From a phage, in sequence record OZ346189.1: 64,000 nucleotides of DNA; one strand, 5' to 3'. The first letter of the stretch is position 1. The number at the start of each line of letters is the position of its first letter. The position numbers were made by a program, and so were the translations under genes. This document shows positions 39,401 to 55,320 of this stretch, piece after piece. The notes below the pieces were generated by a model. It saw only the letters and a list, made by a program, of their open reading frames with translations, was not told the DNA's origin and made no database searches.

Positions 39401-40503
39401 TTACCGTCCCTTCTGGAGCAATCATTGTGAGAAGGAATGGTAAAGTGGCAGTGTGCGGTAACTGTAATAACGCCAAAGCTTACTCTTCTGTAGCAGGCAA
39501 GGAGATTTCCCGTAACGATGGTAAACCTATCACGTATGGGGTTATGTATGGGGCACAAAAAGATAAAGTTGCAGATATGCTGGACATCTCCCCAGAGTTG
39601 GGACAAAGGGTAATCGATGCACTCTGGGATGCCAACCCAGGTCTTAAGGGGCGCAAAGAGGATCTGGAGAAATTCTGGGAAGCAACAGGTAAGAAGTTTA
39701 TCTACTCTTTTGATGGTCATGCTATCTGGACCCGATCTAAACACTCTTTACTTAATGCATACCAACAAAATGGCGGTGCATCGTTGTGTGACTTAGTTGG
39801 AATACTCATGCACCACCAGATGGTGAAGCGTGGGTGGTACGATGAAGGTGTTCGTCGTATTATTTATTACCATAAATAACATTGTGGCTTCATAGAGTAA
39901 TCTATGTCGAATAACCTCTTTAACTGCGGGAAGCCTAAACCTTATGGCAAGGTAATCCGCAACGAAGCGCTCAAAAGAGCGAACGCTCAGAGGCCATTCC
40001 GAAAGGAAGTAGACCAGCAAGTGCGGTCGAAATGGGAGGATTCCTGTGGTTGCTTATCATAGGAATATGAGATGGTCCGATCCTACGTGAAAACGTATGG
40101 CTATGCACGTAATGGTGCGGGGTAGCTTAACGACCTACCTGAACTATTGGATGAGTACCAACTTCAAGTGCCTGACACACCGAAGTATAAGACTGTGTAC
40201 ACCTTCGACACAATTGAAGAACTGGAAGCATTTAAGGCAGAGCAGGAAGCCAAACTTCATGTGTTCGACGGTCATAAGTACAAAAAGGCACGCAAGGATG
40301 AGGACGGAAACGAAGTGGTTGACAGAGACGGAAACACGGTGTACGATCCTATCCTGAACGATGACGGAAAGCTTGAACTTATCTGGAGCCCTGTGGGTGA
40401 AATGGTGGTACATTGCTTCTGGCAAGCTTCTAAAATGATGGGAGTCCCGTTCCAGATCACAGGTGAATACTTGTGTGGTCGTAATTGGGGTAATTGTCAC
40501 TAA
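36481..40503 (+). CDS. DNA polymerase, family A (T7-like), interrupted by an intein and a putative group I intron; exons 36481..39873 and 40150..40503
   Basis: Exo motif FDFEASGL; motif A region GIDGSNLEQL...NGDAH; post-intein AKAYSSVAG...ITYGVMYGA; exon 1 ends ...IIYYH; exon 2 starts DEYQLQV and ends RNWGNCH, like the T7 PNWAICH terminus. Confidence 0.75.
38494..39462 (+). mobile_element. intein (323 aa) with LAGLIDADG-type homing endonuclease domain, in the polymerase motif A region
   Basis: in-frame insertion between NGDAH and CNNAKAY; starts CYSGDTQIL, ends VAVCGN with +1 Cys; internal LLIAIHDDGHL and FIASLSNWDGW motifs. Confidence 0.65.
39874..40149 (+). ncRNA. putative ORF-less group I intron splitting the polymerase HDE motif C
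   Basis: exon 1 ends in U (39873), element ends in G (40149); intron GUGG (nt 11-14) pairs with exon CCAU (P1, U-G at splice site) and intron CAUU (nt 7-10) pairs with exon-2 GAUG (P10); in-frame stops exclude an intein. Confidence 0.55.
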
Positions 40504-40552
40504 TGTAAACTATCAACACATGGAAGTGTTGTTGAGCAAAGAGGAGACTTTT

Positions 40553-40837
40553 ATGGTAGTAGAACCAACAAAAACATTTACATCCATGACTATCCCTGTT
40601 ATTATGCAGGTGGAGTGTGTTCAGGTATCTCAAGTGTGGCCTGGCACCAAAATCCCAACAGGGCCTGATTTCTTTCAGGTTGGGAAAGTGTACAATGTCT
40701 GGAAGGCACCAGATTGTTACCCTTTCATTAAAGATGACCGTGGGATGCTGTGGTATCTTGGAAATGACTTGACACTGCACCTTGGGAATGCTATTATTGC
40801 AGTATTCAGACTTAACAAGAAGGAGACCGATCAATGA
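40553..40837 (+). CDS. small protein, paralogue family 2
   Basis: track ORF 40463..40837 overlaps pol exon 2; ATG 40553 behind RBS agaggaga preferred; motif FFQVGKVYNV...GMLWYLGND. Confidence 0.45.
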   Translation: MVVEPTKTFTSMTIPVIMQVECVQVSQVWPGTKIPTGPDFFQVGKVYNVWKAPDCYPFIKDDRGMLWYLGNDLTLHLGNAIIAVFRLNKKETDQ

Positions 40838-41061
40838 CGACTTTGGTTAAAGCCACCTTTGTAGAAGAAAAGATGACAGACATGTCATTCTTTAAAGAAG
40901 GAAAGACCTACGAGGTTTATTCCGATAAAGCTCGTGCAAACAAAATGATTAAAGACGAGGAAGGGGTTGACTGGTATATCTCTCACCTGGCAAACGGTGA
41001 GTATCATATCTACGGAACCACTTTGCTTGCCAAGTTTGTAGTTGTTGAAGAGGACCTATGA
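40834..41061 (+). CDS. small protein, paralogue family 2
   Basis: 75 aa; FFKEGKTYEVYSD...GVDWYISHLANG resembles neighbours. Confidence 0.45.
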   Translation: MTTLVKATFVEEKMTDMSFFKEGKTYEVYSDKARANKMIKDEEGVDWYISHLANGEYHIYGTTLLAKFVVVEEDL

Positions 41062-41252
41062 AAGTAAAGTATCTTGCTGAAGGTATGAATAGGTATTTTA
41101 CCCTTGGTGAAGAATATTGGCCCTTTACAAACAACGGCGATGTCTACGTGAAAGATAATTTCGGCACGCCGTGGTTTCTGCACTCTAATGGGCTGGGATA
41201 CTCCATTTACTGCGGTGCAGTGAACAACACAACTCTTGCAGAGTTCGTTTAG
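41058..41252 (+). CDS. small protein, paralogue family 2
   Basis: 64 aa; FTLGEEYWPF...GTPWFLHSNG. Confidence 0.4.
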   Translation: MKVKYLAEGMNRYFTLGEEYWPFTNNGDVYVKDNFGTPWFLHSNGLGYSIYCGAVNNTTLAEFV

Positions 41253-41262
41253 AGGAGGTAGG

Positions 41263-41634
41263 ATGTTAGTAAAAGGTACCCACACAGTCAAACAACGTAT
41301 TGAAGTTGAGATTGATGATTGTGAGCTGAAGCATATTTTACGGTCATGCTCCAACGTTTTGCTCCTTAGTATTCTTCAGGAGCGAGCGGAGAACGAGTTC
41401 TTAAATGCATTGGCAGGCCGTCCCGGTGACTTCTGTGTGCGTAAGCGTGGTGACAACAAGTCGTGGTTGTGGGAGATCGATGCCGACTGGGATTACCACA
41501 AAAATGAGGGTATAGATGAGCCTATTCGTGAACTGACGGACAAAGAGATTCAGATGTACAATGAAGTTTGTCATTGGGCAACACGCCAACAAATTTACCT
41601 AGACCCTGTGTGGCTGATTGAAAATAGTCGTTGA
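41263..41634 (+). CDS. hypothetical protein
   Basis: ATG 41263 behind RBS gaggaggt (track ORF starts at 41236). Confidence 0.45.
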   Translation: MLVKGTHTVKQRIEVEIDDCELKHILRSCSNVLLLSILQERAENEFLNALAGRPGDFCVRKRGDNKSWLWEIDADWDYHKNEGIDEPIRELTDKEIQMYNEVCHWATRQQIYLDPVWLIENSR

Positions 41635-41659
41635 CAAGAAGTAAGGTTAGATGTAAGAT
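41631..41659 (+). promoter_or_regulatory. sigma70-like promoter
   Basis: ttgaca-N17-taagat upstream of 41711. Confidence 0.45.
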
Positions 41660-41710
41660 ACTCCTCACAAACAGAGTATTGATTGTTAAATAATTAAGGA
41701 GACCTCTAAG

Positions 41711-41965
41711 ATGAAAATCATGTTGAAACCAGAATGCGTTGCAAACGACCGAGCTTTTAAAGATTGCACACTTGGCGCTACTTATGAAGCAGAGTTTTGT
41801 GAGAACCCTTTGGTAAAAGCCCTTTTGGAAGAAGGGGCCCCTCTATCACAAGAAGAGCTTGATGAGCTGGAAAACTCAGCACAGTGCCTTACCTTTAAAG
41901 ATGATGAAGGAGACTCTGTCTGGTGCACTGTTAACGAAGTAGTTTTTGTAAAAACTGAACATTAA
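41711..41965 (+). CDS. small acidic protein, paralogue of 42029..42289
   Basis: 84 aa; DRAFKDCTLGATYEA...DDEGDSVWCTVNEVVFV. Confidence 0.45.
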   Translation: MKIMLKPECVANDRAFKDCTLGATYEAEFCENPLVKALLEEGAPLSQEELDELENSAQCLTFKDDEGDSVWCTVNEVVFVKTEH

Positions 41966-41968
41966 TAC

Positions 41969-42006
41969 TTGACAACAGCGATAGGACCTAATACAATGGT
42001 CCTATC
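41969..42006 (+). promoter_or_regulatory. sigma70-like promoter with hairpin overlapping the -10 box
   Basis: ttgaca-N17-tacaat; inverted repeat ataggacc/ggtcctat spans the -10 region. Confidence 0.45.
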
Positions 42007-42028
42007 AAAACGAAAGGGGACCACAGCA

Positions 42029-42289
42029 ATGACCAAACAATATCAACGAATTAAAGCCAAGGTTAAGCCAGACTATCTAGAGAAGGACTCTGCTTTTCGG
42101 GACTGCACAGCTGACAAAGTTTACACAGGGGCCGTCCTGTTGAACGATAAACTTGAAGTAGATGTGCTGGGTAAAGAGGCCGTTATCGAGGATGACAACG
42201 GTGACTGTGTTTTCTGCACCACACGAGAGCTAGAAGTCTTAGAATATTTCGGTGAAATCTTCAACTCCTTAGACGACGAGGAAGCGTGA
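42029..42289 (+). CDS. small acidic protein, paralogue of 41711..41965
   Basis: ATG 42029 behind RBS aaagggga, downstream of the promoter at 41969; DSAFRDCTADKVYTG...DDNGDCVFCTTRELEVL. Confidence 0.4.
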   Translation: MTKQYQRIKAKVKPDYLEKDSAFRDCTADKVYTGAVLLNDKLEVDVLGKEAVIEDDNGDCVFCTTRELEVLEYFGEIFNSLDDEEA

Positions 42290-42678
42290 TGAAAAATATT
42301 TGGGATATCGATATCTTTGAAGCCTCTAAGCTTGACGGTGCTGATGGAGTGATTATGGTGTCTGATGGCAAGGCAACACTAACTTCCGGAGATATCATCT
42401 ATGCCTTGGACGAGCTGGCGCTTCTGAAATCTACCGGTAACACTTTGGAGGAGCGTCTTCAAGGATTCGCTTTCAAAGAAGGTACAAATACAGCCATGAT
42501 GTGCACCACACGGACAGTTCAGGTTGGTAACGGTGTCTATATGATTATTGCTGTGTGTCCTAAATTCAGCAACGTCAACAAAGATGATGCTGACGCGGTC
42601 AACGATGTGGTTGTTCTCTTCGTGGGTGACGCTATGGCAGATCTGATGAATGCAGGAGAAGCAGCAAATGAAGACTGA
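42286..42678 (+). CDS. hypothetical protein
   Basis: 130-aa ORF, ATGA overlap. Confidence 0.45.
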   Translation: MMKNIWDIDIFEASKLDGADGVIMVSDGKATLTSGDIIYALDELALLKSTGNTLEERLQGFAFKEGTNTAMMCTTRTVQVGNGVYMIIAVCPKFSNVNKDDADAVNDVVVLFVGDAMADLMNAGEAANED

Positions 42679-42970
42679 AAACATCACCCCAGCAGGGTTC
42701 TTAAAAGTATACCGTGAACTGCTATATACTACAGAGGACAGTGTTCTAGAGTATCCAGAATATCTTTTGCTGTATAAGTATCTGCAGGAGGCTGGTGAAA
42801 ATCTGCCAGTTAGTGCAGAAGGTGGTCCAAACTGGATATACAGCGCATGGAGAAAGGTTGACATTCTCCCAGACCCAGGTAAAGATATGGTAGTTTGGCA
42901 GCTTATCAACAACATCGGGATTCCAATCTTTGATGAAGCTGTTAAAATCTATTTTGAACTTGACGATTAA
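42668..42970 (+). CDS. hypothetical protein
   Basis: ATG 42668 behind RBS caggagaag (track ORF starts at 42650). Confidence 0.4.
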   Translation: MKTENITPAGFLKVYRELLYTTEDSVLEYPEYLLLYKYLQEAGENLPVSAEGGPNWIYSAWRKVDILPDPGKDMVVWQLINNIGIPIFDEAVKIYFELDD

Positions 42971-42987
42971 TATCAGGAGACCTTAAG

Positions 42988-43233
42988 ATGACTGAAGCAG
43001 TTGCTCGCGCAGGACAGAAAGTACGTTGTGTTGAAGTAGGTTTTGGTGGCAAAGGGTGTCAAAACTTGACTCAAGGCAAGGAATATGCTGTTATCTCTGG
43101 TGGTGGCGACGAAAGTATTGTGTTCGAGGGCCACATCCTGGATGCTGAAAACTTTGAAATCTTTGACGACGATGGGGATCCGATCACCTGCCTGCTGGAC
43201 GGGAATTGGGGAACTTTCGAAGTGATTGGCTAA
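42988..43233 (+). CDS. small protein, paralogue family 2
   Basis: 81 aa; LTQGKEYAVISGGGDESIVFEGHILD. Confidence 0.45.
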   Translation: MTEAVARAGQKVRCVEVGFGGKGCQNLTQGKEYAVISGGGDESIVFEGHILDAENFEIFDDDGDPITCLLDGNWGTFEVIG

Positions 43234-43316
43234 CAAATACCTATTGTAATTTACAGAAGGGGATGCTAAAATAGTGTCTCCTTCTATGTTGTTCAAATAA
43301 AATCGGAGATTCCATA

Positions 43317-43685
43317 ATGGAACAAATGAACGATCAAGAGTCGGTTGCGATGAACGAGCAAGAACAACCTCAAGAATTTTTCTTAGGGTTAAGTAAAGAT
43401 CAAGTGTCTCTTTTGCTAGTGCTTTCTTCTTTCATGGGAAGACTTCAGGAGCTCACACAACAACCGGAGGCTGAACAATTATTTCAGGCTCTGCGTGAAG
43501 AAGAAAAATATCGTCGTTTGGACTATGCCTTAGGTTGGGTAGCTCAACAACGAGATATGCTGATGGCCCTCTCTGGGACCACAAGTTTTGCAATGGGCCT
43601 GTTGGCTCAAGTTCAGGACAAATTAATTCAAGCAGGGTTTGCACACACGGCAAACACTAACGAAGAACAAGGAGACAAAGAATGA
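43317..43685 (+). CDS. hypothetical protein
   Basis: 122-aa ORF, RBS ggagattcc. Confidence 0.45.
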   Translation: MEQMNDQESVAMNEQEQPQEFFLGLSKDQVSLLLVLSSFMGRLQELTQQPEAEQLFQALREEEKYRRLDYALGWVAQQRDMLMALSGTTSFAMGLLAQVQDKLIQAGFAHTANTNEEQGDKE

Positions 43686-44908
43686 GCGTTATTCAACAAT
43701 TCGCTAACCCGATGAATCCGCGTGAAACTGTTTTACTGGCTCACGGCATGATTAAACGCGTCAGCATCAAGCCTATCAAAGGTGCTGATCCTACAACAGG
43801 TATTAAAACCACTGTGTGGCAAGGTAAGAAAATTGAATCCAGCCACACCATCTCTTTACTGATTTCTGAACTGGATTCCTCTGATAACCTACTTCAAGGT
43901 GGTGAAGAAGTTTGGATCAGTATGGGCGATAAGCTGCTTAAACCGGGTCATCAAGACTCTGTCTCTGTTAAAATTGATGACAAGTGGGAAACCGTAACGC
44001 CAGGATGGATCGTAAATATCCCTTTGAAGGCAAACGAGCATAACGGTAAGACCTACTACAAAGGCTCACTGGCTAAGATGGTTAAGCTGGGTGCAGGAGA
44101 GGCTCCAGCAGCGACTCAGCAGCAAAAACAGCAACAAGGTGCACAATCACAAGGCCAGAAGCAGAAACCTCAGCAGAATGCCAATCAGGACGTTTTACGC
44201 ATCTATGGTGATGTGACTCAGATTGTTGGCAACGTGGTTACTGTAAATGACCACAAGATTGGCGAAGGTGCTATGGTTGTAACTGATGAGCAGCTTAAAG
44301 ACCTGGTGGTAGGTGGTCGTGTTGCAGCCATTGTTGACAAAGACACTGGAAACATTATCAGTGGTTTCAAGGCCTATCCTCCTAAGGCAGAGAACGGCAC
44401 TCAAGGCTCCGGTGGCAAGCGTAAATCCTCTTACGACCCTATCGGTGTGGAAACGGGGCATAGCATCAATGCGTTGCAGATCATCCTGGATCGCGGGTTT
44501 AAGGTAGACGACCCACTGGGCGTGGCTAAAACACTGCACGTAGTCACCATTGAGCTTAAGAAAGAGTATGCTCAAGCCACCAACCGAACTGAAGATGAAG
44601 TAGGTGCCAGTGTCGGTAATGCGGTGTTGAACGCTTGTCGCCGTATTGACAAGAAAACGAAAGTTGATGATTTTGCAGCGGCAATTACTGCAGAAGCAAA
44701 AGATGTCTTGACTAATCTGGCTGAGCCGTTGTACGATTGGATCAAGAACGGTGCTGGGTCAACTGACCATCAAGAACCTCAGGCTGCCAAACAGGAAGCA
44801 GCTCCACAGCAAAACACTGTAGACGCTCCTCCTGTAAATGATGGGGAAGATGACCCGATGGATCAGAATCCAGCACAGTACGCCTTTGATGATGACATCC
44901 CTTTTTAA
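43682..44908 (+). CDS. putative ssDNA-binding protein with host-SSB-like acidic C-terminal tip
   Basis: 408 aa; Gln-rich linker; C-terminus ends AFDDDIPF, identical in its last six residues to the E. coli SSB tail. Confidence 0.45.
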   Translation: MSVIQQFANPMNPRETVLLAHGMIKRVSIKPIKGADPTTGIKTTVWQGKKIESSHTISLLISELDSSDNLLQGGEEVWISMGDKLLKPGHQDSVSVKIDDKWETVTPGWIVNIPLKANEHNGKTYYKGSLAKMVKLGAGEAPAATQQQKQQQGAQSQGQKQKPQQNANQDVLRIYGDVTQIVGNVVTVNDHKIGEGAMVVTDEQLKDLVVGGRVAAIVDKDTGNIISGFKAYPPKAENGTQGSGGKRKSSYDPIGVETGHSINALQIILDRGFKVDDPLGVAKTLHVVTIELKKEYAQATNRTEDEVGASVGNAVLNACRRIDKKTKVDDFAAAITAEAKDVLTNLAEPLYDWIKNGAGSTDHQEPQAAKQEAAPQQNTVDAPPVNDGEDDPMDQNPAQYAFDDDIPF

Positions 44909-44923
44909 CAATTAGTTAACATA

Positions 44924-44952
44924 GCCCTGCCCGAAAGGGTGGGGCATTTTTG
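44924..44952 (+). terminator. rho-independent terminator (copy 2 of the repeated hairpin)
   Basis: gccctgcccgaaagggtggggc followed by atttttg. Confidence 0.55.
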
Positions 44953-44970
44953 TATAAGGAGATCTGAAAA

Positions 44971-45387
44971 ATGACATTAGAAGATATCATTGTTAAACCT
45001 GAGAACTATGACCAATACAACCTGTCAACTCAATCTGTAGACCTTGGATGCGCCACAGTTAGTGCGTGGCTGGTTAATGGAAAAGAGCTGGACAAGTGCT
45101 TAGAAGCTCACATGTCTGTTAACAAGTTTCTGGATGAAAATACTCACTGGCTTGAGGGTGCTGGAGTATATGCTTCATGGTTGGAGAGCATGGGCTTTGA
45201 CTATCAATCTGATGAAGGGTGGTGGAGCTATCTGGCTATCTGTCCAGAAACACTGCAATGCTTCATGAAATACTCTGAAGATCTTGAGTACCGAGCGGTG
45301 GTTGATAGTGCTATTGCCCGTTATAGCCGTAAACCTTTTTCCCATGACATTAAAACTGTGGAAGAATTTGTTGAAGTTTTCTGTTGA
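44971..45387 (+). CDS. hypothetical protein
   Basis: 138-aa ORF, RBS aaggagatc. Confidence 0.45.
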   Translation: MTLEDIIVKPENYDQYNLSTQSVDLGCATVSAWLVNGKELDKCLEAHMSVNKFLDENTHWLEGAGVYASWLESMGFDYQSDEGWWSYLAICPETLQCFMKYSEDLEYRAVVDSAIARYSRKPFSHDIKTVEEFVEVFC

Positions 45388-45412
45388 CACAGGTTGAAAG
45401 GTGTGCAATTAT
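45384..45412 (+). promoter_or_regulatory. sigma70-like promoter
   Basis: ttgaca-N17-aattat overlapping the stop of 44971..45387. Confidence 0.4.
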
Positions 45413-45483
45413 AACTTCATAAAACGGGAGGACGCGATGAACGAAGAAAACTGGGATGTATAACTAACAGGAGACCACTGCCC

Positions 45484-45681
45484 ATGATTTATCGAATCCG
45501 TGTAAGAGAAGATGCACCAGGCTGTTACTTTGACTGGCGTGGGTGGTGGTTTCTCCACCCAATGGATGGACTCACAGATAGAATGCTGGATGCTGCCCTT
45601 TATACAGATACCGACATAGAATATAATCTCTATCTGAAGGACGGTATAGATAACGGTCTATTTGAAGCAATTCCTGTGTAA
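45484..45681 (+). CDS. hypothetical protein
   Basis: 65-aa ORF, RBS caggagacc. Confidence 0.4.
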   Translation: MIYRIRVREDAPGCYFDWRGWWFLHPMDGLTDRMLDAALYTDTDIEYNLYLKDGIDNGLFEAIPV

Positions 45682-45749
45682 GAGACTGTGATAGCCATGT
45701 TTTATGATCTTCCTGTAGCACCACCACCTGTTGAACCTGGAGAACTAAG

Positions 45750-46169
45750 ATGATCTATGAAATGCCAAAACTGATTCGTGACGATGCCCAAAACCACACC
45801 ATTATTATGGGTAAACGCATGAATATCCTTTGCCGTAACGATTTCTGTGGTGTAGAATACGTTGCAGACTACTTCGGTGAGAATGGTAAACACCCTGTTC
45901 AGTTCTTCCTTGACCATGAGGATAACATTATCTGGGAGTTTGAAACTGAAGATATCCGCAACCTCTTCATCTTCCTCGGTGTCAAGGTTAAGGCCAATTT
46001 CGCGGAAGGTGAGTGCGACGATTGTGGATTTTATGAGGTGACAGACTTCTATCTCCCGAGTGGCAAGAACATTTACTATGAGAGTCACTTCGGAAACACC
46101 AACATGCCTCAAAGCTGGGAAGAATTTTTCAGTATCGTAGAAGAGGAGCTGGCATACCGTGATTATTGA
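45750..46169 (+). CDS. hypothetical protein
   Basis: 139-aa ORF. Confidence 0.45.
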   Translation: MIYEMPKLIRDDAQNHTIIMGKRMNILCRNDFCGVEYVADYFGENGKHPVQFFLDHEDNIIWEFETEDIRNLFIFLGVKVKANFAEGECDDCGFYEVTDFYLPSGKNIYYESHFGNTNMPQSWEEFFSIVEEELAYRDY

Positions 46170-46617
46170 TACTGTAAAGGGAGATTTAATCTCCCTTTTT
46201 AAGAGCGGTGCTGGTCACCTAATCCACGGTTGTAACTGCTTCCACACAATGGGTAAGGGCATAGCAAAACAGATTGCCCGTGAGTTTCCTCAAGCATTGT
46301 CAGCCGACAAAGAGACCAGACACGGTTGCCTAAGTAAACTGGGTGCGTTCTCCCGATGGGAGCACTTATCTCCGAGAGGTATTGTCTACGGAATCAATCT
46401 GTATACTCAGTTCTACCCAGGGCCTAATGCTGAATATTTCTCAATCCTGAAAGGCTTTGAGCTAGTCAATGAGGTATTCGAGGGATCGACTTTACCATTC
46501 TACATCCCTAAGATCGGATGCGGCATAGGCGGTTTGAAGTGGGAGCACGTAGAGGACGTTATTAACCTCGCCACTTTTGATATAGATATTATCGTGGTGG
46601 AGTACAAAGAGTGTTGA
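46159..46617 (+). CDS. macro-domain protein (ADP-ribose binding/processing)
   Basis: GDL...AGHLIHGCNCFHTMGKGIAKQI fits the macro-domain pattern GDI...DAIVNAAN...GGGV.GAI; later IPKIGCGIGG fits the second glycine-rich motif. Confidence 0.5.
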   Translation: MIIDTVKGDLISLFKSGAGHLIHGCNCFHTMGKGIAKQIAREFPQALSADKETRHGCLSKLGAFSRWEHLSPRGIVYGINLYTQFYPGPNAEYFSILKGFELVNEVFEGSTLPFYIPKIGCGIGGLKWEHVEDVINLATFDIDIIVVEYKEC

Positions 46618-46642
46618 CAGCTGACTTTTGAGATGGTATAGT
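46614..46642 (+). promoter_or_regulatory. sigma70-like promoter
   Basis: ttgaca-N17-tatagt upstream of 46674. Confidence 0.5.
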
Positions 46643-46673
46643 CACCACAACGATTGAGAGAGGGAGCACCACT

Positions 46674-46874
46674 ATGGAGACTAAAATCTTAATTCTGGCT
46701 GTGATAGATACGACCGAAGGGGCCGTGTTCGAATCTGCAGGAGGGTATTTCTACCTGCCCTACGGAAAAATAACTTCCGAACCGAGTAAAGATTCAATCC
46801 TTAAAGTGTTCCCTTGTGCTTTCTGGCTGGAGATTCTGGTAGAAGATTGCAGAGGATTGGGGAGAGAATTATGA
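46674..46874 (+). CDS. hypothetical protein
   Basis: 66-aa ORF, RBS gagagagggag. Confidence 0.4.
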   Translation: METKILILAVIDTTEGAVFESAGGYFYLPYGKITSEPSKDSILKVFPCAFWLEILVEDCRGLGREL

Positions 46875-47065
46875 GAAACAAGAAAGAGCTTTACTCTGGC
46901 GAGTGGATCAACGATCAACAGGTCGGAGAGGTAACCTGCTTCCGGTGTTTTACTCGGTACAATCTTAAAACTGCACCAAAAAGTGTTCCAAAGACTGACG
47001 GTTATTACATAAAAGAACCTCATTGCCCAAAATGTAAATGCCGATTGTACTGGAGCAATCTATAA
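46871..47065 (+). CDS. zinc-ribbon protein
   Basis: ATG 46871 behind RBS ggggagag; CFRCF...CPKCKC cysteine pairs. Confidence 0.4.
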   Translation: MRNKKELYSGEWINDQQVGEVTCFRCFTRYNLKTAPKSVPKTDGYYIKEPHCPKCKCRLYWSNL

Positions 47066-47069
47066 GAGG

Positions 47070-47098
47070 TTGACATCTGAAAACTGCAGTGTATAGTA
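47070..47098 (+). promoter_or_regulatory. sigma70-like promoter
   Basis: ttgaca-N17-tatagt upstream of 47129. Confidence 0.5.
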
Positions 47099-47128
47099 TA
47101 CACATAAACTAACAGAGAGCGATGTATT

Positions 47129-47320
47129 ATGGTAATTTTTAACCGGGATGGTATCATAGTTAGACAGCACCCGTTCCTTGAATACTATCAAATTGAGCAA
47201 TGGTGCTACGGGGATTGCAGTCACTCCTATGGGCAAAGTTGGGGATATCGTACAGTTTTTGAATCAACAGACCTTGACAAAGTAAGACAGAAAGTTTTAG
47301 AACTTATTAACAACAAGTGA
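47129..47320 (+). CDS. hypothetical protein
   Basis: 63-aa ORF. Confidence 0.35.
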   Translation: MVIFNRDGIIVRQHPFLEYYQIEQWCYGDCSHSYGQSWGYRTVFESTDLDKVRQKVLELINNK

Positions 47321-47329
47321 GTATGATAT

Positions 47330-47662
47330 ATGGTAACATTAGAAAGACGTAAAGCTATCGCCGCCACACTGGCAGACATCTTTTGGGATTGCAACTTAAA
47401 AGATACCAGAAATTGTGGCGCATCTGTAGATGTATTATTCCCACGGCCCACCATTGTTGCAATGGGAAACCTGTTAAACGTAGTGTACGGAGCATGGGAC
47501 AAAGAAGGTGGATTCTATATCTGGCAACCTGACTACAGAGCCTGGAAAGAGGTAAGGGGTGCGGTTGACTTTGGGCCTGCAAGTGCTAAGATGGATGGCT
47601 GGGAAATTTATGTTGGAAACGACATGAAGCTGAAAGGCGAGATTGTTTACTGGTTACCTTAA
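47330..47662 (+). CDS. hypothetical protein
   Basis: 110-aa ORF. Confidence 0.4.
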   Translation: MVTLERRKAIAATLADIFWDCNLKDTRNCGASVDVLFPRPTIVAMGNLLNVVYGAWDKEGGFYIWQPDYRAWKEVRGAVDFGPASAKMDGWEIYVGNDMKLKGEIVYWLP

Positions 47663-47682
47663 GAGAATGCAGGAGATAAAGT

Positions 47683-47928
47683 ATGAACAAAGGGTGGACA
47701 TTTGTAGACGGCGTTGAAAACATGCCTCTAGGAAAGTATATTGTAGCCATGGCAGATGAGAATGGCAAGGTTGATTTCGGAGCTTGCGAGGTTGTTCTTG
47801 CAGGATCTGGTGACTATGCTCACAAAACTGGGATAATTAACGGTCATTTCTACTTTGATTACAACCCTGTTGTGGCGTATATGGCTATGCCAGAGTTCGA
47901 GCTCCCAAAGGAGGGTGCGGATGTTTAA
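47683..47928 (+). CDS. small protein, paralogue family 2
   Basis: 81 aa; MPLGKYIVAMADENGKVDFG; RBS caggagata. Confidence 0.45.
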   Translation: MNKGWTFVDGVENMPLGKYIVAMADENGKVDFGACEVVLAGSGDYAHKTGIINGHFYFDYNPVVAYMAMPEFELPKEGADV

Positions 47929-48118
47929 GCTTAAATCTGCATGGAACATCGCTGTGGGGGACGAGATCCGCATCCCAGGTGGAAAGACCATTATGAAGAT
48001 ATCTCGTATCGAGTACGAAGGTGATCGTGTATTTCATATCTTTGCAGAAGATGGTCGAGAAATTTATATACAGGCAGGCTCTCACATCTATATTCGTAAG
48101 AAAGGGGACGACAAATGA
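47924..48118 (+). CDS. small protein
   Basis: ATG 47924 behind RBS ggagggtg (track ORF starts at 47855). Confidence 0.4.
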   Translation, partial: FKLKSAWNIAVGDEIRIPGGKTIMKISRIEYEGDRVFHIFAEDGREIYIQAGSHIYIRKKGDDK

Positions 48119-48444
48119 CAGAGATCATCATTTCAACTGCAGGGTATGTGTTCCTGACAATCATTGCACTGACCATTTTGGTGGTGGTATATGGAATTGT
48201 TATTCTCCCTATTCTTGAGACAATTAGTTTGTGTCGGTGTTGGAGAAAGGCTTACGGTCCACAGCCGTGGAAGGACTGGCCCCACCTGGTGCACATAGCG
48301 TTCTCTTATGCTTATGATCACGCCAGCAGTGCATGCATAACCGGGTATCACGCCCACAACTGGAGCTGGGAAGGGTTGAGGAAATGGAATGTTACAAAGA
48401 CCATACCTCTGCGCATGTACAAACCTAAAAACAAAGACAGCTGA
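48115..48444 (+). CDS. small membrane protein
   Basis: 109 aa with hydrophobic N-terminal helix (YVFLTIIALTILVVVYGIVILPIL). Confidence 0.45.
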   Translation: MTEIIISTAGYVFLTIIALTILVVVYGIVILPILETISLCRCWRKAYGPQPWKDWPHLVHIAFSYAYDHASSACITGYHAHNWSWEGLRKWNVTKTIPLRMYKPKNKDS

Positions 48445-48473
48445 TACTTGAAAATCCCTGGCATATCAAGTGT

Positions 48474-48510
48474 AAGGAGGATTTCTAAAATGGATTTCCT
48501 CCTTTTGATA
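48474..48510 (+). terminator. terminator-like hairpin
   Basis: aaggagg / cctcctt inverted repeat followed by ttgatattt. Confidence 0.35.
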
Positions 48511-49047
48511 TTTCACCGGGCCAGATATTTTAAAATTCTTAGAAAATCAGAAAATGGATCGAAAACTAAAATGGATTTTTCAAGACAGGCACGATAAGAT
48601 GTGCTGCTCATTCTATCGTTCGCACCGTACTTTAAGTCACTATTCCAGATTTTTCCGCACATACTCTCACCCTTCTACCAGAACTTTCCCAGCTTACCTC
48701 TGACCTTTTATAACAATAAGTCCATTATTATCAGAAAGTTTCGGCACATCTCTTTCGGTACTCGATCTGTTTTTCATTTCAAAGACCTGATTTTCTGAAA
48801 ATTTTTCTCGATAAATTTCTTAGTACTCGATCTGTTTTTCGTTTTCTGAATCGGATTTTCTGGAAATCGTTCCAGCCCTCGACCTGAAATTTTTGGGGAC
48901 GAAATCGATTTTTCGTTTTCAGAAATGGATTTTTAAAATTTCTATATGGGAATATTTTATGGGATACTGTTTTATAGGAAATTGTTACGGAGGGTAATTA
49001 GCATGCTAATTAAATTTATTAAATGCGAGGAGTTCTCATTTAGAATT

Positions 49048-49066
49048 TTGAATGATAATCATTCTC
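49048..49066. promoter_or_regulatory. Fur-box-like palindrome 1
   Basis: ttgAATGATAATCATTcTC: 12-nt core ATGATAATCATT identical to the Fur consensus GATAATGATAATCATTATC core, about 15/19 overall. Confidence 0.35.
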
Positions 49067-49140
49067 GTTTGCAGAATAACGGGCAGGCCCGGTGATTGTC
49101 TCCCGGCCCCTGTTGCCCCGGCTTGTTATTATAGTATCAC
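49049..49140. repeat. direct repeat unit R1
   Basis: aatgataat..ttctcgtttgcag...tgattgtctccc shared with R2. Confidence 0.4.
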
Positions 49141-49178
49141 ACAGGACAAAGAAAGCAAGGATTTTTTGCATAAATTTT

Positions 49179-49280
49179 TAAATGATAATGATAACCGTTC
49201 TCATTTTATGCAGCGCCCATCCCCGGTGGTTGTCTCCCCCGTCACCGGTGCCTGCCGTCCTTTCGATAGGTATATTGTGC
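49179..49280. repeat. direct repeat unit R2
   Basis: aatgataatgataaccgttctcattttatgcag...ggttgtctccc, imperfect copy of R1. Confidence 0.4.
49184..49202. promoter_or_regulatory. Fur-box-like palindrome 2
   Basis: GATAATGATAAcCgTTcTC: about 16/19 to the Fur consensus. Confidence 0.35.
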
Positions 49281-49640
49281 CACCTGGCGGGGCCGCTGTC
49301 AACACTTCTTCAAAAATTTTTTCTAACATAATGCACCAACCGCTGCAACCTGGCGGGGCCAGCCTGGCAGGACCTGACTGACCAGGTAGGAGAGAGTGAA
49401 AACTTGCAAACCTGGTAGGCCTATGCTACAGGGCAGGTAACAATTGAAGAGGAGGTACAAAAATGAAAAGTAATATAATCCCCTGGAAAATGTAGCGATC
49501 AACGCCGCTGAAGTTATCACCCTGGTTGAAAAGGCTATGGCGGGAGCGTTGGAACATAAAGAAGAGTACGAAAAATGATGGTTAACCTGGCAGGGGCGGC
49601 GGCTGGAGAATTCTTCCCAAAAAATAATTCTAACTAATGG

Positions 49641-49668
49641 TTGACAGCTCGGAGAGTTCTGTTATTCT
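49641..49668 (+). promoter_or_regulatory. sigma70-like promoter
   Basis: ttgaca-N16-tattct about 55 nt upstream of 49722. Confidence 0.5.
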
Positions 49669-49721
49669 TATCCTCGCAAGGTGAACAACACCACACTAAT
49701 TAACAGAGAGGATAAAAAATC

Positions 49722-49919
49722 ATGAACGCCTACGGAATTAAAGTACGTCGCAACACTCACCAGGCCGTCACCGATCAAATGGTTTGCCAGGTGGACGTAA
49801 CCATCAACAACGGGCAAGGCCTTTATAAATTCCGTCGCGGTCAGAGCTATACCCGGCAACAGCTTAATCGTTGCGCCCTGACAAAAGGCCAGATCAACCA
49901 CTGGTTTAATAAAAAATAA
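49722..49919 (+). CDS. small basic protein
   Basis: 65 aa, RBS agagaggat. Confidence 0.45.
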   Translation: MNAYGIKVRRNTHQAVTDQMVCQVDVTINNGQGLYKFRRGQSYTRQQLNRCALTKGQINHWFNKK

Positions 49920-49922
49920 GTA

Positions 49923-49951
49923 TTGACATATAGTCTGACACCAAATACACT
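49923..49951 (+). promoter_or_regulatory. sigma70-like promoter
   Basis: ttgaca-N17-tacact. Confidence 0.5.
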
Positions 49952-49983
49952 AAAAGCACAAAAGACACTAAGAGGATAAAATC

Positions 49984-50382
49984 ATGAAAACCACTACCTT
50001 TAATTTTGATAATGCGGACTTTTCTTTTTCTGATGTCAAGAACTGCCGCCGGGATCGTGGATTTTACAAGGCTTATAATCTGGTGGGCCTGGACGATGAC
50101 AATAATTTGCACGAAGTAGCTGAGATCCGGTATTATGCCGCCGCCAGCGGGAACACTCAATACTGCGTTTTTTGGATTCACGACAACAAGAACAATAAGT
50201 ACGGTTATACTGGCGGGAAGGCGAGCGGTCACGGTTACGATAAAGCTAATGCAGCACTTGAGAGCGCATTAAATGCTATGGGGATCACTGCCAACGGCTG
50301 GATCTATGAAGAAGAGTTTTTGTCGGCACTTGCTGACCACCTGGGCTATAAAAAGCACATTGTAACATGCGCCCACGAATAA
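49984..50382 (+). CDS. hypothetical protein
   Basis: 132 aa, RBS taagaggat. Confidence 0.5.
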   Translation: MKTTTFNFDNADFSFSDVKNCRRDRGFYKAYNLVGLDDDNNLHEVAEIRYYAAASGNTQYCVFWIHDNKNNKYGYTGGKASGHGYDKANAALESALNAMGITANGWIYEEEFLSALADHLGYKKHIVTCAHE

Positions 50383-50388
50383 AAATTG

Positions 50389-50445
50389 TTGACACGCTGC
50401 AAAATTCAAGTAAACTAGTCACAAAAGGCGGGAATGTTTCCCGCC
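50389..50445 (+). promoter_or_regulatory. sigma70-like promoter plus 5'-terminal stem-loop
   Basis: ttgaca-N16-taaact, then hairpin ggcgggaatgtttcccgcc (50427..50445) at the predicted transcript 5' end. Confidence 0.5.
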
Positions 50446-50464
50446 AACACAAAGGAAAAAGATC

Positions 50465-50869
50465 ATGAATAAGAACGTACGCCGCATCATGAACGAACTG
50501 GCAAACGATGAAAAAATTATTGACATGCATTTGATCAACATTTGCCGCCGTTGTGTAACATATAACAACCGCGCCGCAAAAGCGCGTGAGATGAACGCAA
50601 AAGGCACCTTAAAGCCATTCCAGGTGGTGGTAAAGGCCATTAAAGATGTAGCTAATACGGCAAACCAGGTACAGGGGAACACCAACGAGAGTACCAATAT
50701 TGATCCGGCTTACATCATGAAACGGATCCGGACCTGCAAGAACAAAGAGCAAGTGTATAATGTCATAGACTGGTTGGATTCTATGGGCGATGTGGTGTAC
50801 AATAGATTCTCGGCAGCTATTGAGATCCAGCTTGACAGGTTAGACGGTAAAGTACTTAAAACTTACTAA
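50465..50869 (+). CDS. hypothetical protein
   Basis: 134 aa, RBS aaaggaaaaag. Confidence 0.5.
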   Translation: MNKNVRRIMNELANDEKIIDMHLINICRRCVTYNNRAAKAREMNAKGTLKPFQVVVKAIKDVANTANQVQGNTNESTNIDPAYIMKRIRTCKNKEQVYNVIDWLDSMGDVVYNRFSAAIEIQLDRLDGKVLKTY

Positions 50870-50918
50870 ATTTATTTTTAGATGGCCTTGACTCCAGGGC
50901 CATCAATAAAGTAAATTA
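50870..50918. repeat. conserved intergenic hairpin element, copy 1
   Basis: atttatttttagatggccttgactccagggccatcaataaagtaaatt; copies at 51491 and 55228. Confidence 0.6.
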
Positions 50919-50949
50919 ATCTCAGCTAAGCGAAAAAGGGGGCTTTAAG

Positions 50950-51069
50950 ATGAGCACTACACGCCAATACACAAAGGTAACTATTATCGCCTGCGTTGTC
51001 GGTTACATCCTGGCGCAAATGTTAATGAGTAGCGCTAACAGTTTTGCAAAATTTTTCTTAAATTTTTAA
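50950..51069 (+). CDS. small hydrophobic peptide (39 aa)
   Basis: below track cut-off; RBS aaaaggggg; TIIACVVGYILAQMLM hydrophobic core. Confidence 0.35.
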   Translation: MSTTRQYTKVTIIACVVGYILAQMLMSSANSFAKFFLNF

Positions 51070-51097
51070 TTGACAAGCTAACTTAGATTGATATACT
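51070..51097 (+). promoter_or_regulatory. sigma70-like promoter
   Basis: ttgaca-N16-tatact, then weak hairpin cgggaaaacttccc. Confidence 0.5.
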
Positions 51098-51148
51098 TAA
51101 ACACGTAAACGGGAAAACTTCCCAGAACACACAAAAGGAGAAAACACC

Positions 51149-51490
51149 ATGACTACTATGACCGCCGCAGAAAAAGCTATTCAGATCGCCGCACTGAAAA
51201 AACAGATCGCAGACCTTGAGAACAAGATCGATAACTTTGAAATCGACGAGGACAAGTACGACGAAAACTATGATGAATGGTTAGACGAGATCTACGGCGA
51301 AATTATGATCGGAAACATTTCTTTTCTTCCGTCGCGTATCCTCAAGGAGCTAGATCCTATCACTTACCGCTGCGGATTTAGCGACTACATCGACAGCCTG
51401 GATATTGAGGACGATGAAGAATACCAGGAATTACAGACAGAGTTAGAAGAAGCAAAAGAAGAGCTTGCAGAACTGGAAGAAAACGAGTAA
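51149..51490 (+). CDS. acidic coiled-coil protein
   Basis: 113 aa, very acidic (DEDKYDENYDEW, EDDEEYQELQTELEEAKEELAELEE). Confidence 0.5.
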   Translation: MTTMTAAEKAIQIAALKKQIADLENKIDNFEIDEDKYDENYDEWLDEIYGEIMIGNISFLPSRILKELDPITYRCGFSDYIDSLDIEDDEEYQELQTELEEAKEELAELEENE

Positions 51491-51537
51491 GATTATTTTT
51501 AGATGGCCTTGACTCCAGGGCCATCAATAAAGTAAAC
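51491..51537. repeat. conserved intergenic hairpin element, copy 2
   Basis: gattatttttagatggccttgactccagggccatcaataaagtaaac. Confidence 0.6.
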
Positions 51538-51579
51538 TTTATACTGTTAACACTGAACTAATGCATAGGAGTTAAAACC

Positions 51580-51825
51580 ATGGCAGCACTAATCACCAAA
51601 TATTATGCCCCTACCAACACCAAAAGCGCCCGTATCATGGTAAAAGGCTTCGGACGTAAAAAGGTGTACACCTGGGATTATGCCTTAGACACGGAAGACA
51701 ACTACACCAACGCGATGACCGATTTTATTAATGATCTGAACACGCGGATCTTGACAAATTATAAAATTACCGATATTGCCTATATAGGGGAAGGCGGGAT
51801 CTGTTTTGTCGGTATCGTCAAATAA
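51580..51825 (+). CDS. hypothetical protein
   Basis: 81 aa, RBS taggagtta. Confidence 0.45.
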   Translation: MAALITKYYAPTNTKSARIMVKGFGRKKVYTWDYALDTEDNYTNAMTDFINDLNTRILTNYKITDIAYIGEGGICFVGIVK

Positions 51826-51837
51826 GCTGTTTTTTCG

Positions 51838-51875
51838 GTGGTCCTGGTAGCAGGGCCATCTATAAAGATAGTTTA
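51838..51875. repeat. degenerate copy of the intergenic hairpin element
   Basis: ggtggtcctggtagcagggccatctataaagatagttt shares the 3' half cagggccatc.ataaag. Confidence 0.4.
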
Positions 51876-51899
51876 TCAATACAATGAAAGGAGAAAGTA

Positions 51900-52254
51900 C
51901 ATGATCAGCGGGGCAAGTTTTATTATTGGCGCTATTGCTACGGCTTTAATTGTAAACAAGATCCAATCTAAAAACGAAAAAGATAGCAACGCCCTTACAG
52001 AATACCCGTTTTGGGTATTCAACGACAATGAAGACTATATTATCAAGTACAAGAATGAGAAGGGCGACCAGGTAACACCGCGACCGATCCCGGCTTACAA
52101 GATGCAAGAAACACTATACCGCCTAAAGGCTGGAGGCGCAAAAATCGTAGACTTTTGGGGATACGATCACACAGATCAGGAAGTTATAAAGCGCCGTATC
52201 CGGGCTATTCAGGCCAATATTGAAGTTAGCAAGGGGGGAATATATGAAGATTAA
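51900..52254 (+). CDS. membrane-anchored protein
   Basis: ATG 51900 behind RBS gaaaggagaaag; N-terminal hydrophobic helix ASFIIGAIATALIV. Confidence 0.45.
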
Positions 52255-52441
52255 TTTTGAGAAGATTGTAAAGCGATCTCATGCTTCCGAAGAGCTGCCG
52301 GAACGCCGCCAGCGCAACAATAAACTGAATAAGCCAAAAAGATTTGGGAAGATCTGGCGGAATCATTATGATCGCAAATTACCGGGCCTGCTTTTGGAAC
52401 GTGAACGACAGGCGGAACGATACCGCCACAAAGGCAAATAA
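52244..52441 (+). CDS. small basic protein
   Basis: ATG 52244 behind RBS aagggggga; Arg/Lys-rich. Confidence 0.4.
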   Translation: MKINFEKIVKRSHASEELPERRQRNNKLNKPKRFGKIWRNHYDRKLPGLLLERERQAERYRHKGK

Positions 52442-52622
52442 CAACCAACGCCCCGCCATTGTGCGGGGCTTTTTATTTCTATCCTACGAATAGCGCCCCC
52501 GGTTGGCCCTGTAAGCGCCAAAAAGGCCCCACCTATGCAATCGCCCCCCTTTAACCTGAAAACATCGCTTAGGGCCGTTTTATGGCGTTAAAAATATCAT
52601 TGATAGTGATTTTATTTAAAGC

Positions 52623-52654
52623 TTGACATCTTAAACAGGTTAGCTATACTAACC
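52623..52654 (+). promoter_or_regulatory. sigma70-like promoter with inverted repeat across the -10 box
   Basis: ttgaca-N17-tatact; ggttag/ctaacc flank the -10. Confidence 0.5.
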
Positions 52655-52682
52655 ACATCAAAGAGAGAAAGGAGTAAACGCC

Positions 52683-52943
52683 ATGCGTAAATTAAAAAAT
52701 TTTGATAAAGTTGATGTTGTCCTGAATAATTTTTACTACTGCAACAACAAGGCCATTTGGTGGCGTGATAGTTCCACCGATAAAGTCAAGGCGCGCTTTC
52801 TCCAGGGGCACTGGCAAGGCCGTCCAGTGATTAAAATCATGGGGCAATTGGTAGCGTTTAAAAATTGCCGCCGTGTTGATGACGTTGAGGAGATTTTAAA
52901 CATTTTGCGCCACAATAATTTAAAAAATAGTGTTGACAAGTAA
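52683..52943 (+). CDS. hypothetical protein
   Basis: 86 aa, RBS aaaggagtaaacgcc. Confidence 0.45.
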   Translation: MRKLKNFDKVDVVLNNFYYCNNKAIWWRDSSTDKVKARFLQGHWQGRPVIKIMGQLVAFKNCRRVDDVEEILNILRHNNLKNSVDK

Positions 52944-52989
52944 ATCTCAATAAGTATAATTAAACACACAGGCGGGAAAACTTCCCGCC
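52933..52989 (+). promoter_or_regulatory. sigma70-like promoter plus 5'-terminal stem-loop
   Basis: ttgaca-N16-tataat, then hairpin ggcgggaaaacttcccgcc (52971..52989). Confidence 0.55.
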
Positions 52990-53017
52990 ACTAACAAAGA
53001 AAACAGGAGAAAATATC

Positions 53018-53641: not shown

Positions 53642-53649
53642 ATAAAGTG

Positions 53650-53707
53650 TTGCAATAGCCTAAAAACCTGCTATATTAAAACTCAAGGGGGCAAGACGTT
53701 TGCCCCC
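53650..53707 (+). promoter_or_regulatory. sigma70-like promoter plus 5'-terminal stem-loop
   Basis: ttgcaa-N17-tatatt, then hairpin gggggcaagacgtttgccccc (53687..53707). Confidence 0.5.
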
Positions 53708-53731
53708 ACACAAAACAAAGAGGAAAACATC

Positions 53732-54112: not shown

Positions 54113-54176
54113 TCAGGTAACAGGCGGCATATTTGCCGCCTTATTGTTAAACAGAACTGCAAAAGAGGTACATAGA

Positions 54177-55227: not shown

Positions 55228-55277
55228 AATTTATTTTTAGATGGCCTTGACTTCAGGGCCATCGATAAAGTAAATTT
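55228..55277. repeat. conserved intergenic hairpin element, copy 3
   Basis: aatttatttttagatggccttgacttcagggccatcgataaagtaaattt. Confidence 0.6.
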
Positions 55278-55320
55278 AAACCCTGTTAAAATACCACGCA
55301 GTTAACAAGGAGTGATAGAC

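Follow-up and report, generated by a model that had tools for sequence, protein, structure and literature searches.

A stand-alone Gln-type macrodomain protein of a Vequintavirus, homologous to T4 Tk.4 and probably directed against DarT2

Gene organization around the macrodomain gene

The window analyzed here is the whole stretch of 64,000 nucleotides of phage DNA from record OZ346189.1, and all positions refer to it. The phage belongs to the Vequintavirinae, genus Vequintavirus, the rV5-like E. coli myoviruses. The Escherichia phage MaxTheCat (BASEL Bas57) is 98.6% identical over 3 kb around the gene of interest, and 119 phage records match this 3-kb stretch at 80% identity or more. The gene and its surroundings contain the following features.

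44924..44945, + strand: strong intrinsic-terminator-like hairpin (9 pairs, then a T-run), closing the preceding unit (a 408-aa gene ending in DDDIPF)
45384..45412, + strand: TTGACA-17-AATTAT, a sigma-70-like promoter motif whose -10 is extended by TG; by motif match only, it is the candidate promoter for the unit of three genes that the macro gene closes
45484..45681, + strand: 65-aa ORF in PHROG 9903, a family of unknown function; the macro transcription unit probably begins with it
45750..46169, + strand: 139-aa ORF (PHROG 8157, unknown function; cysteines at 28, 33, 89, and 92), with an 11-nt overlap with the macro start
46143..46148, + strand: GAGGAG, Shine-Dalgarno or ribosome-binding site 10 nt upstream of the macro GTG, read from the sequence
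46159..46617, + strand: stand-alone 152-aa macrodomain CDS, orthologue of bas57_0089 and homologue of T4 Tk.4/AdfM; the end includes the TGA stop
46614..46642, + strand: near-consensus sigma-70-like promoter motif TTGACA-17-TATAGT (11/12, with TG), the -35 of which overlaps the macro stop codon

An earlier sequence-only reading of this DNA had placed a 152-aa ORF with a GTG start at 46159..46617 on the + strand, and the ORF list contains exactly this frame. The macro signatures named there are all present in the translation, namely G8-D9-L10, HLIHGCNCFHTMGKGIAKQI (residues 20-39), and IPKIGCGIGG (residues 116-125). The GTG start is credible because the N-terminus of the window protein aligns with that of T4 Tk.4 from residue 1 (MIIDTVKGD versus MIVKYIKGD); starting at the next in-frame methionine (M31) would lose the first strand and the Asn26 motif. 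The matches to Pfam Macro and PHROG 335, the many phage homologues, and the dN/dS value, which is approximately 0.26 against the orthologue of O157 typing phage 4 (only about 16 differences), indicate that the frame is a true gene rather than one open by chance.

The protein is identical to that encoded by bas57_0089 of MaxTheCat, which is annotated as "hypothetical protein" and shows one synonymous difference at the DNA level. The gene is kept in 116 of the 119 close Vequintavirus records, and orthologues in other records are annotated as "macro domain protein", "phosphatase", or "O-acetyl-ADP-ribose deacetylase". The possibility of a prophage or host gene was rejected, as a megablast search of 5,426 complete E. 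coli genomes did not retrieve it.

The macro gene lies downstream of a replication module (a PIF1-like helicase, a DNA methylase, a DnaB-like helicase, and a 1,132-aa ORF), within a run of small + strand ORFs; those downstream of it encode 63-110 aa, and all ten of the scanned neighbors belong to PHROG families without known function. At its GTG, the macro gene overlaps the preceding 139-aa ORF at its stop codon (GTGATTATTGA), and because of this 11-nt overlap the two genes are probably co-transcribed and translationally coupled. A Pfam search with the 139-aa ORF gave no match. We also considered this ORF as a conserved partner of the macro gene and rejected the idea, since its homologues outside Vequintavirus are found only in Krischvirus, beside dam and with no adjacent macro gene.

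The terminator-like hairpin at 44924..44945 is followed by the promoter motif at 45384..45412, and no terminator-like site was found on the + strand between this motif and position 46617. The likely transcription unit as read from these signals therefore consists of the ORF at 45484..45681, the ORF at 45750..46169, and the macro gene, and the motif at 46614..46642 probably starts the next unit of small genes. Sigma-70-like promoter motifs are enriched in the 39.8-56 kb region, where 56 were observed, nearly all of them on the + strand, against 29.6 ± 6.1 in shuffled sequences. Judging from these motifs, the macro gene is probably transcribed early by the host RNA polymerase from sigma-70-type promoters.

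Macrodomain fold and class

The sequence-only reading had assigned the protein to the macro domains and had pointed to a profile search and a structural comparison as checks, and both bore the assignment out. The protein matches Pfam Macro (PF01661) with 28.5 bits, above the gathering cut-off of 22 (E 1.6e-6), and a precomputed PF01661 match exists for 64 of 120 homologues. It matches PHROG 335 with an E value of 2.9e-60. A tblastn search of 50,697 phage records returned homologues in 2,727 of them, including the T4-like gene beside vs annotated as Tk.4.

An AlphaFold model built from the single sequence was discarded (pLDDT 30.7), and the prediction was rerun with a 64-sequence alignment, giving a pLDDT of 96.4 and a pTM of 0.91. 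The predicted model has the macro fold, i.e., a three-layer alpha/beta/alpha arrangement with a central mixed sheet, and superposes on solved macrodomains. Foldseek against the PDB gave TARG1, Poa1p, DarG, BT1257, and SCO6735 as the top matches (E 1e-9 to 1e-6, TM 0.7-0.85), and a profile search of the PDB sequences returned the same top set. The nearest structures are thus TARG1, DarG, Poa1p, and SCO6735/BT1257, and not MacroD, PARG, or the viral X-domains. On the basis of the sequence and the predicted model, the window protein belongs to the TARG1/ALC1-like macrodomain class. The PHROG 335 label "phosphatase", carried by thousands of phage genomes, probably misleads.

Active-site residues

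The predicted ADP-ribose-binding elements are located as follows.

46225..46266, + strand: first predicted ADP-ribose-binding loop, residues 23-36 (HGCNCFHTMGKGIA), with the invariant Asn26 (codon 46234-46236), Gly34, and Ala36
46396..46410, + strand: NLYTQ, residues 80-84; Gln84 (codon 46408-46410) stands at the position of the catalytic lysine of TARG1 (K84) and DarG (K80)
46507..46536, + strand: second, predicted diphosphate-binding glycine-rich loop PKIGCGIGGL, residues 117-126; G120 and G122 correspond to G126 and G128 of SCO6735

The glycine-rich loops (G32-x-G34 and G120-x-G122-x-G124-G125) are conserved, and ADP-ribose binding is predicted. Among 118 homologues, Asn26 is present in all and Gln84 in 116. 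For the active site, we aligned the window protein with T4 Tk.4, one bacterial homologue, SCO6735, BT1257, TARG1, Mycobacterium tuberculosis DarG, and PhiKZ gp104. Asn26 is common to all of the aligned proteins except TARG1, which has serine, and aligns with Asn27 of SCO6735, the asparagine of DarG, and Asn23 of gp104. Gln84, in the motif L-Y-T-Q, is common to T4 Tk.4, the bacterial homologue, SCO6735, and BT1257, whereas TARG1 (ITK84), DarG (FPTK80), and PhiKZ gp104 (FPTK) possess a catalytic lysine instead. The Asn26/Gln84 pair aligns with the Asn27/Gln85 pair of SCO6735, and the window protein is accordingly of the Gln type.

Relationship to the phage proteins named AdfM

The closest protein with a known phenotype is T4 Tk.4 (NC_000866), which shares 40% identity with the window protein over the full length (152/155 residues, E 8e-42). 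In a transposon screen of T4 on a host carrying DarTG2, tk.4 alone gave a significant hit (HIDEN-SEQ preprint, 10.1101/2025.11.20.689424). A clean tk.4 knockout rendered T4 sensitive to DarTG2, with restriction in M9 glucose at 30 °C or at sub-MIC chloramphenicol, and the protein was named AdfM, for anti-DarT factor macrodomain; the enzymatic removal of ADP-ribose by Tk.4 was inferred by the authors from the genetic evidence (10.1101/2025.11.20.689424). Both Tk.4 and the window protein are stand-alone macrodomains of about 150 aa from lytic E. coli myoviruses, encoded in blocks of small non-essential genes, and they have in common the motifs HGCNCFHTMG, NLYTQ, and P-x-IG-x-GIG, including Asn26 and Gln84. 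They differ in lineage (Straboviridae versus Vequintavirinae) and in gene neighborhood, which consists of tk.3 and vs in T4 and of ORFs in PHROG families of unknown function in the window. There are also residue differences: Tk.4 has serine in place of Lys33 of the window protein, and lysine and glycine in place of Gly124-Gly125. The anti-DarTG2 role is genetically proven for Tk.4, whereas we infer that of the window protein from homology.

The name AdfM was given independently by Morgan et al. to gp104 of PhiKZ, which strips ADP-ribose off a DarT2-modified oligonucleotide in vitro, is impaired by the N23A substitution, and rescues E. coli from DarT2 (PMC13309987). For gp104, therefore, activity on DarT2-modified DNA is proven. 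Like the window protein, it is a stand-alone phage macrodomain of the TARG1/DarG class with the conserved asparagine (N23 versus N26) and the glycine loops. The two proteins are, however, only 20% identical (pairwise E 7e-5), and gp104 has the lysine of the DarG-type FPTK motif, not glutamine. In addition, gp104 is imported into the phage nucleus. To our knowledge, vequintaviruses do not build such a nucleus. Comparison of the sequences indicates that the two proteins named AdfM are members of different subfamilies with different catalytic residues, a point that is only modestly new, and the two subfamilies are probably of different origin.

Comparison with cellular macrodomains

The DarG model was the only PADLOC model matched by the window protein, with 51.1 bits at positions 3-141 of 329; the same model scores 132.9 bits with PhiKZ gp104 and 36 bits with T4 Tk.4. 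The best NCBIfam match was the DarG equivalog NF048014, with 48.5 bits (cut-off 250) and coverage of positions 2-143 of 338 only. DarG of DarTG2 (PDB 5M3I, 5M31, and 7OMU) has about 340 aa, carries a DarT-binding domain at its C-terminus, uses Lys80, and is encoded beside darT. In the window protein, the C-terminal DarT-binding domain is absent, as its 152 aa comprise the macrodomain alone; no DarT gene lies beside the macro gene, the neighbors being PHROG families without known function; and the lysine of the F-P-T-K motif (K80 in Taq DarG) is absent, with Gln84 of L-Y-T-Q aligning there. From the model scores and these three differences, the identification of the protein as a DarG was rejected.

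The nearest characterized Gln-type enzyme is SCO6735, in which Gln85 takes the lysine position and the Q85A variant is inactive (Hlousek-Kasun et al., PMC9411070). Asn27 locks Gln85, the N27S variant is almost inactive, and G128E lowers the activity. SCO6735 takes off the ADP-ribose that DarT places on thymidine, and it protects E. coli against DarT (PMC9411070). The counterparts of Gln85, Asn27, and G128 in the window protein are Q84, N26, and G122. Streptomyces coelicolor SCO6735 (PDB 5E3B) and Bacteroides BT1257 (2FG1/2AFC), which are cellular and not viral, share 26-27% identity with the window protein by sequence alignment and 23-24% by structural alignment. In both, the "mobile loop" after the glutamine is 5-6 residues longer and carries Lys89, which has no equivalent in the window protein; furthermore, Val25 of SCO6735 is replaced by Gly24. 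SCO6735 has a basic surface (pI 9.69), whereas the window protein is mildly acidic (pI 6.05), and the SCO6735-like combination of an extended basic mobile loop and an electropositive DNA groove was not found in it. The acidity is no argument against a DNA substrate: T4 Tk.4 has a pI of 5.91, and that of PhiKZ gp104, an enzyme with activity on DNA, is lower still at 5.05.

Human TARG1/OARD1 (PDB 4J5R) and yeast Poa1p (6LFQ) are the top Foldseek matches (E about 1e-9, TM 0.71-0.85). The loop after the catalytic position of TARG1 has the same length as that of the window protein. The catalytic dyad of TARG1, Lys84/Asp125, is replaced by Gln84/Gly125, and TARG1 has serine for Asn26. Poa1p has in common with the window protein, besides the fold, an H-x-C-N-C motif around its His23/Ser30, while the middle of Poa1p is not alignable by sequence. 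Poa1p is an ADP-ribose-1''-phosphate phosphatase, which acts on a soluble metabolite.

Proposed function

We consider it rather likely that the window protein is an early-expressed thymidine-ADP-ribose glycohydrolase of the Tk.4/AdfM type with a Gln/Asn active site, which frees the phage DNA of DarT2 adducts in E. coli carrying DarTG2. The sequence-only reading had proposed reversal of DarT-type DNA ADP-ribosylation as a counter-defence, and this proposal gains support from the T4 Tk.4 homology and the Asn26/Gln84 pair; what we infer for this phage is the substrate, expression early in infection, and a role in counter-defence. According to the proposed mechanism, the host DarT2 would put ADP-ribose on thymidine N3 wherever single-stranded phage DNA has TNTC motifs, and replication would be blocked. 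The two glycine-rich loops of the macro enzyme (residues 23-36 and residues 117-126) would hold the ADP-ribose, and cleavage of the ribose-thymine bond by the enzyme would leave free ADP-ribose and replicable DNA. In the scheme predicted from SCO6735, Asn26 would hold Gln84, and Gln84 would bring the distal ribose into place for a reaction mediated by water; the lysine-based scheme of DarG and TARG1 would not apply to the window protein.

We counted in favor of the glycohydrolase the homology to T4 Tk.4, the activity of gp104, the Asn26/Gln84 pair, the matches to the DarG models, the retention of the gene among the close records, the dN/dS value, and the promoter enrichment. The host, E. coli, is the same as for T4 and the DarTG2 system of those studies, which was also counted in favor. 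On the other side, we counted the fold match to Poa1p, which is equally good, yet Poa1p is an ADP-ribose-1''-phosphatase; the lack of the long basic mobile loop of SCO6735, together with the mildly acidic pI; the nature of the T4 evidence, which is genetic and comes from a preprint; and the absence of a DarT link in the bacterial members of the subfamily. The promiscuity of the TARG1 class was counted against as well, since both SCO6735 and TARG1 accept RNA with uracil-linked ADP-ribose and protein adducts as further substrates (PMC9411070, PMC13036486). Our literature search found no DarTG test on Vequintavirinae or Bas57, and no reported result on a DarTG2 host for the transposon library of Bas54, another member of Vequintavirinae. 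Phage macrodomains erasing DarT2 marks were already described in 2025-2026, and the gene in the window extends that known work.

The promiscuity of the class raises the possibility that the protein erases ADP-ribose from a broad range of targets and works in vivo mainly, not on DarT2-modified DNA, but on ADP-ribosylated RNA (uracil) or protein (Glu/Asp), modified by host transferases or by one encoded by the phage. This overlaps with the anti-DarT2 glycohydrolase and does not exclude it. SCO6735, the nearest characterized Gln-type enzyme, and TARG1 remove both uracil-linked and protein-linked ADP-ribose (PMC13036486, PMC9411070). Moreover, the bacterial stand-alone members are found among housekeeping genes without a nearby DarT, suggesting a general repair role. 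Against such a main target, we know of no uracil-targeting ADP-ribosyltransferase defence in E. coli. CmdT modifies adenine, and its modification is described as irreversible (PMC13036486), and the T4 homologue already has a DarTG2-specific phenotype (10.1101/2025.11.20.689424). As for a transferase encoded by the phage, none is annotated in Vequintavirus BP9, which has only a sirtuin beside RNA ligase 1, about 50 kb away; this is weak evidence, given a sparsely annotated record with a seemingly chimeric 3' end. Overall, we judge RNA or protein to be an unlikely main target.

We find it somewhat less likely still that the protein hydrolyzes small molecules, as an ADP-ribose-1''-phosphate phosphatase or O-acetyl-ADP-ribose deacetylase that clears by-products of NAD-dependent RNA repair or ADP-ribose metabolites made by defence systems. 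The database names of the family suggest such an activity, although they reflect motif transfer and not assays; the fold match and the HxCNC motif in common with Poa1p point in the same direction. The module of sirtuin and RNA ligase 1 elsewhere in Vequintavirus genomes would also fit, as would a prediction made in general terms by Iyer et al. (2022), but the V5-type sirtuin/ligase neighborhood is uncoupled from Macro (Iyer et al. 2022), and here about 50 kb separates it from the macro gene. T4, in turn, has Tk.4 and lacks the sirtuin module, and the only phenotype detected for Tk.4 was on DarTG2 (10.1101/2025.11.20.689424). The invariant Asn/Gln pair, furthermore, is the pair needed for cleavage of thymidine-ADP-ribose (PMC9411070). 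Finally, a non-catalytic binder of ADP-ribose, i.e., a sponge or sensor that sequesters immune signals (e.g., His-ADPR of Thoeris, or gcADPR) or inhibits DarT by binding, seems highly improbable to us. Macro domains can be pure binders, the macro domain of Thoeris II ThsA binds His-ADPR, and SCO6735, DarG, and TARG1 keep inhibiting DarT in vitro through interaction even after their catalysis is abolished (PMC9411070). A preprint on macrodomains in Thoeris/CBASS was considered as a precedent for a phage enzyme and set aside, as it concerns the host effector ThsA.

Bacterial relatives and origin

A scan for the pattern HG[CA]NC..MG in one genome per bacterial species found 507 loci with relatives at 37-45% identity, approximately as close to the window protein as T4 Tk.4 is. 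Eighty of the bacterial loci were fetched, and in 66 of them the relative is a stand-alone ORF 140-180 aa long. The genes nearby are lineage-specific housekeeping genes (SecA, ArgC, RpoC, EF-G, and ribosomal proteins), and no family occurs in more than seven loci. DarT was not found among the 25 commonest of the 81 Pfam families represented in 104 immediate neighbors. The interpretation of the bacterial relatives as orphaned or linked DarG antitoxins was therefore rejected: they are mostly stand-alone ORFs with varied neighbors, and the 25 commonest families include no DarT. In these bacterial loci the Gln-type subfamily thus shows no linkage to a toxin; describing it as an "orphan antitoxin" probably gets its history wrong, and, because the bacterial members are not linked to DarT, the ancestral role of the Gln-type fold may be different from an anti-DarT role.

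A possible scenario, which we offer tentatively, is that AdfM has two separate origins. The PhiKZ type would be a truncated Lys-type DarG, while the proteins of T4 (Tk.4) and Vequintavirus would derive from the Gln-type subfamily that is stand-alone in more than 500 bacterial genomes, the phages having borrowed a general cellular nucleic-acid de-ADP-ribosylase. If this is true, no antitoxin was captured, and the enzyme may counter several ADP-ribosylating defences and not only DarTG2, acting on thymidine in DNA, uracil in RNA, and perhaps proteins. Because glutamine replaces lysine in the active site, work on DarG inhibitors or on the DarG mechanism is not simply transferable to the phage Gln-type enzymes.

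The present analysis provides a testable function for a gene that the annotation of about 120 sequenced phages of the rV5-like group, whose members are used in phage therapy and biocontrol, calls "hypothetical protein". It predicts that rV5-like phages would be naturally resistant to DarTG2, and that the loss of one small gene would expose their sensitivity.

Predicted early transcription and the neighbours of the macro gene

At window positions 39800-56000, 56 near-consensus sigma-70 promoter motifs were found, almost all of them on the + strand, against 29.6 ± 6.1 expected from shuffled sequence. The motifs are densely spaced and sited between small genes, and one of them is perfect:

40769, 41969, 46614, 47070, 51070 and 52623, + strand: examples of near-consensus sigma-70 motifs
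52933, + strand: sigma-70 motif matching at 12/12 positions

This arrangement suggests that the host RNA polymerase transcribes the region early, as many short units. Two genes within it lie upstream of the macro gene:

43682-44908, + strand: 408-aa protein, PHROG 4477, unknown function
45750-46169, + strand: 139-aa ORF, PHROG 8157, unknown function

Located two genes upstream of the macro gene, the 408-aa gene is followed by a strong terminator-like hairpin (44924-44945). The protein has no Pfam match; its middle region is rich in Gln and Pro, and its C-terminal end reads ...YAFDDDIPF. The C-terminus of E. coli SSB has the same acidic tip. The protein could be the single-strand DNA-binding protein of the phage or, alternatively, an SSB-tail mimic by which host partners of SSB are either recruited or titrated.

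The 139-aa ORF overlaps the start of the macro gene by 11 nt and likewise gave no Pfam match. It possesses cysteines at positions 28, 33, 89, and 92 (CxxxxC...CxxC) and is possibly zinc-binding. Its identity to most other Vequintaviruses is only ~73%, whereas that of the macro gene is 91-99%, indicating that the ORF evolves faster than the macro gene. In Krischvirus, distant homologues of this ORF adjoin dam.

Other genes of the window

Two further genes lie upstream of the promoter-rich region or at its edge:

23912-25096, + strand: 394-aa AAA ATPase, whose counterpart in phage BP9 is annotated as 'MoxR-like ATPase'
36481-39879, + strand: 1,132-aa ORF, placed after the DnaB-like helicase gene

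The rIIA and rIIB genes (26032-29230) are located just downstream of the ATPase gene. In the related phage Bas54, the MoxR ATPase bas54_0063 is reported to be required against the predicted defence system DS-28 (HIDEN-SEQ preprint, 10.1101/2025.11.20.689424). The 1,132-aa ORF showed a weak Hint-domain match at residues 672-706, whose score of 20.1 bits falls short of the cut-off; the ORF may encode a replication protein split by an intein.

Related modules and records in other viruses

Vequintaviruses also carry a sirtuin gene, which adjoins genes for RNA ligase 1 and a kinase, with a tRNA cluster close by. The module lies outside the window, ~50 kb from the macro gene:

PP488543.1 (phage BP9) 56168-58220, corresponding to 6168-8220 of the extracted stretch L005: sirtuin ('NAD-dependent deacetylase'), RNA ligase 1 and kinase

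An NAD-dependent RNA-repair role was predicted for this module by Iyer et al. 2022.

The BP9 record itself ends (~124.9-138.3 kb, stretch L006) in lambda-like and IS genes foreign to a Vequintavirus (integrase, ea22, exodeoxyribonuclease VIII, InsA, and replication proteins), and PP488543.1 looks like a chimeric assembly. Among the phage records matching the 3-kb stretch around the macro gene, 16 unannotated 'Campylobacter phage' records (e.g. MG065644 and MG065690) state Campylobacter jejuni as the host. They are 93-94% identical to the E. coli Vequintavirus of the window, and their host assignment looks doubtful.

The top viral structural match to the window macrodomain in BFVD was A0A481YV05 (TM 0.93, 39% identity), a Marseillevirus protein of 302 aa named 'SNF2 subfamily protein', in which the match covers the macrodomain part. 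The same Gln-type macrodomain is thus present in giant viruses of eukaryotes as well, where it is fused to a second domain.
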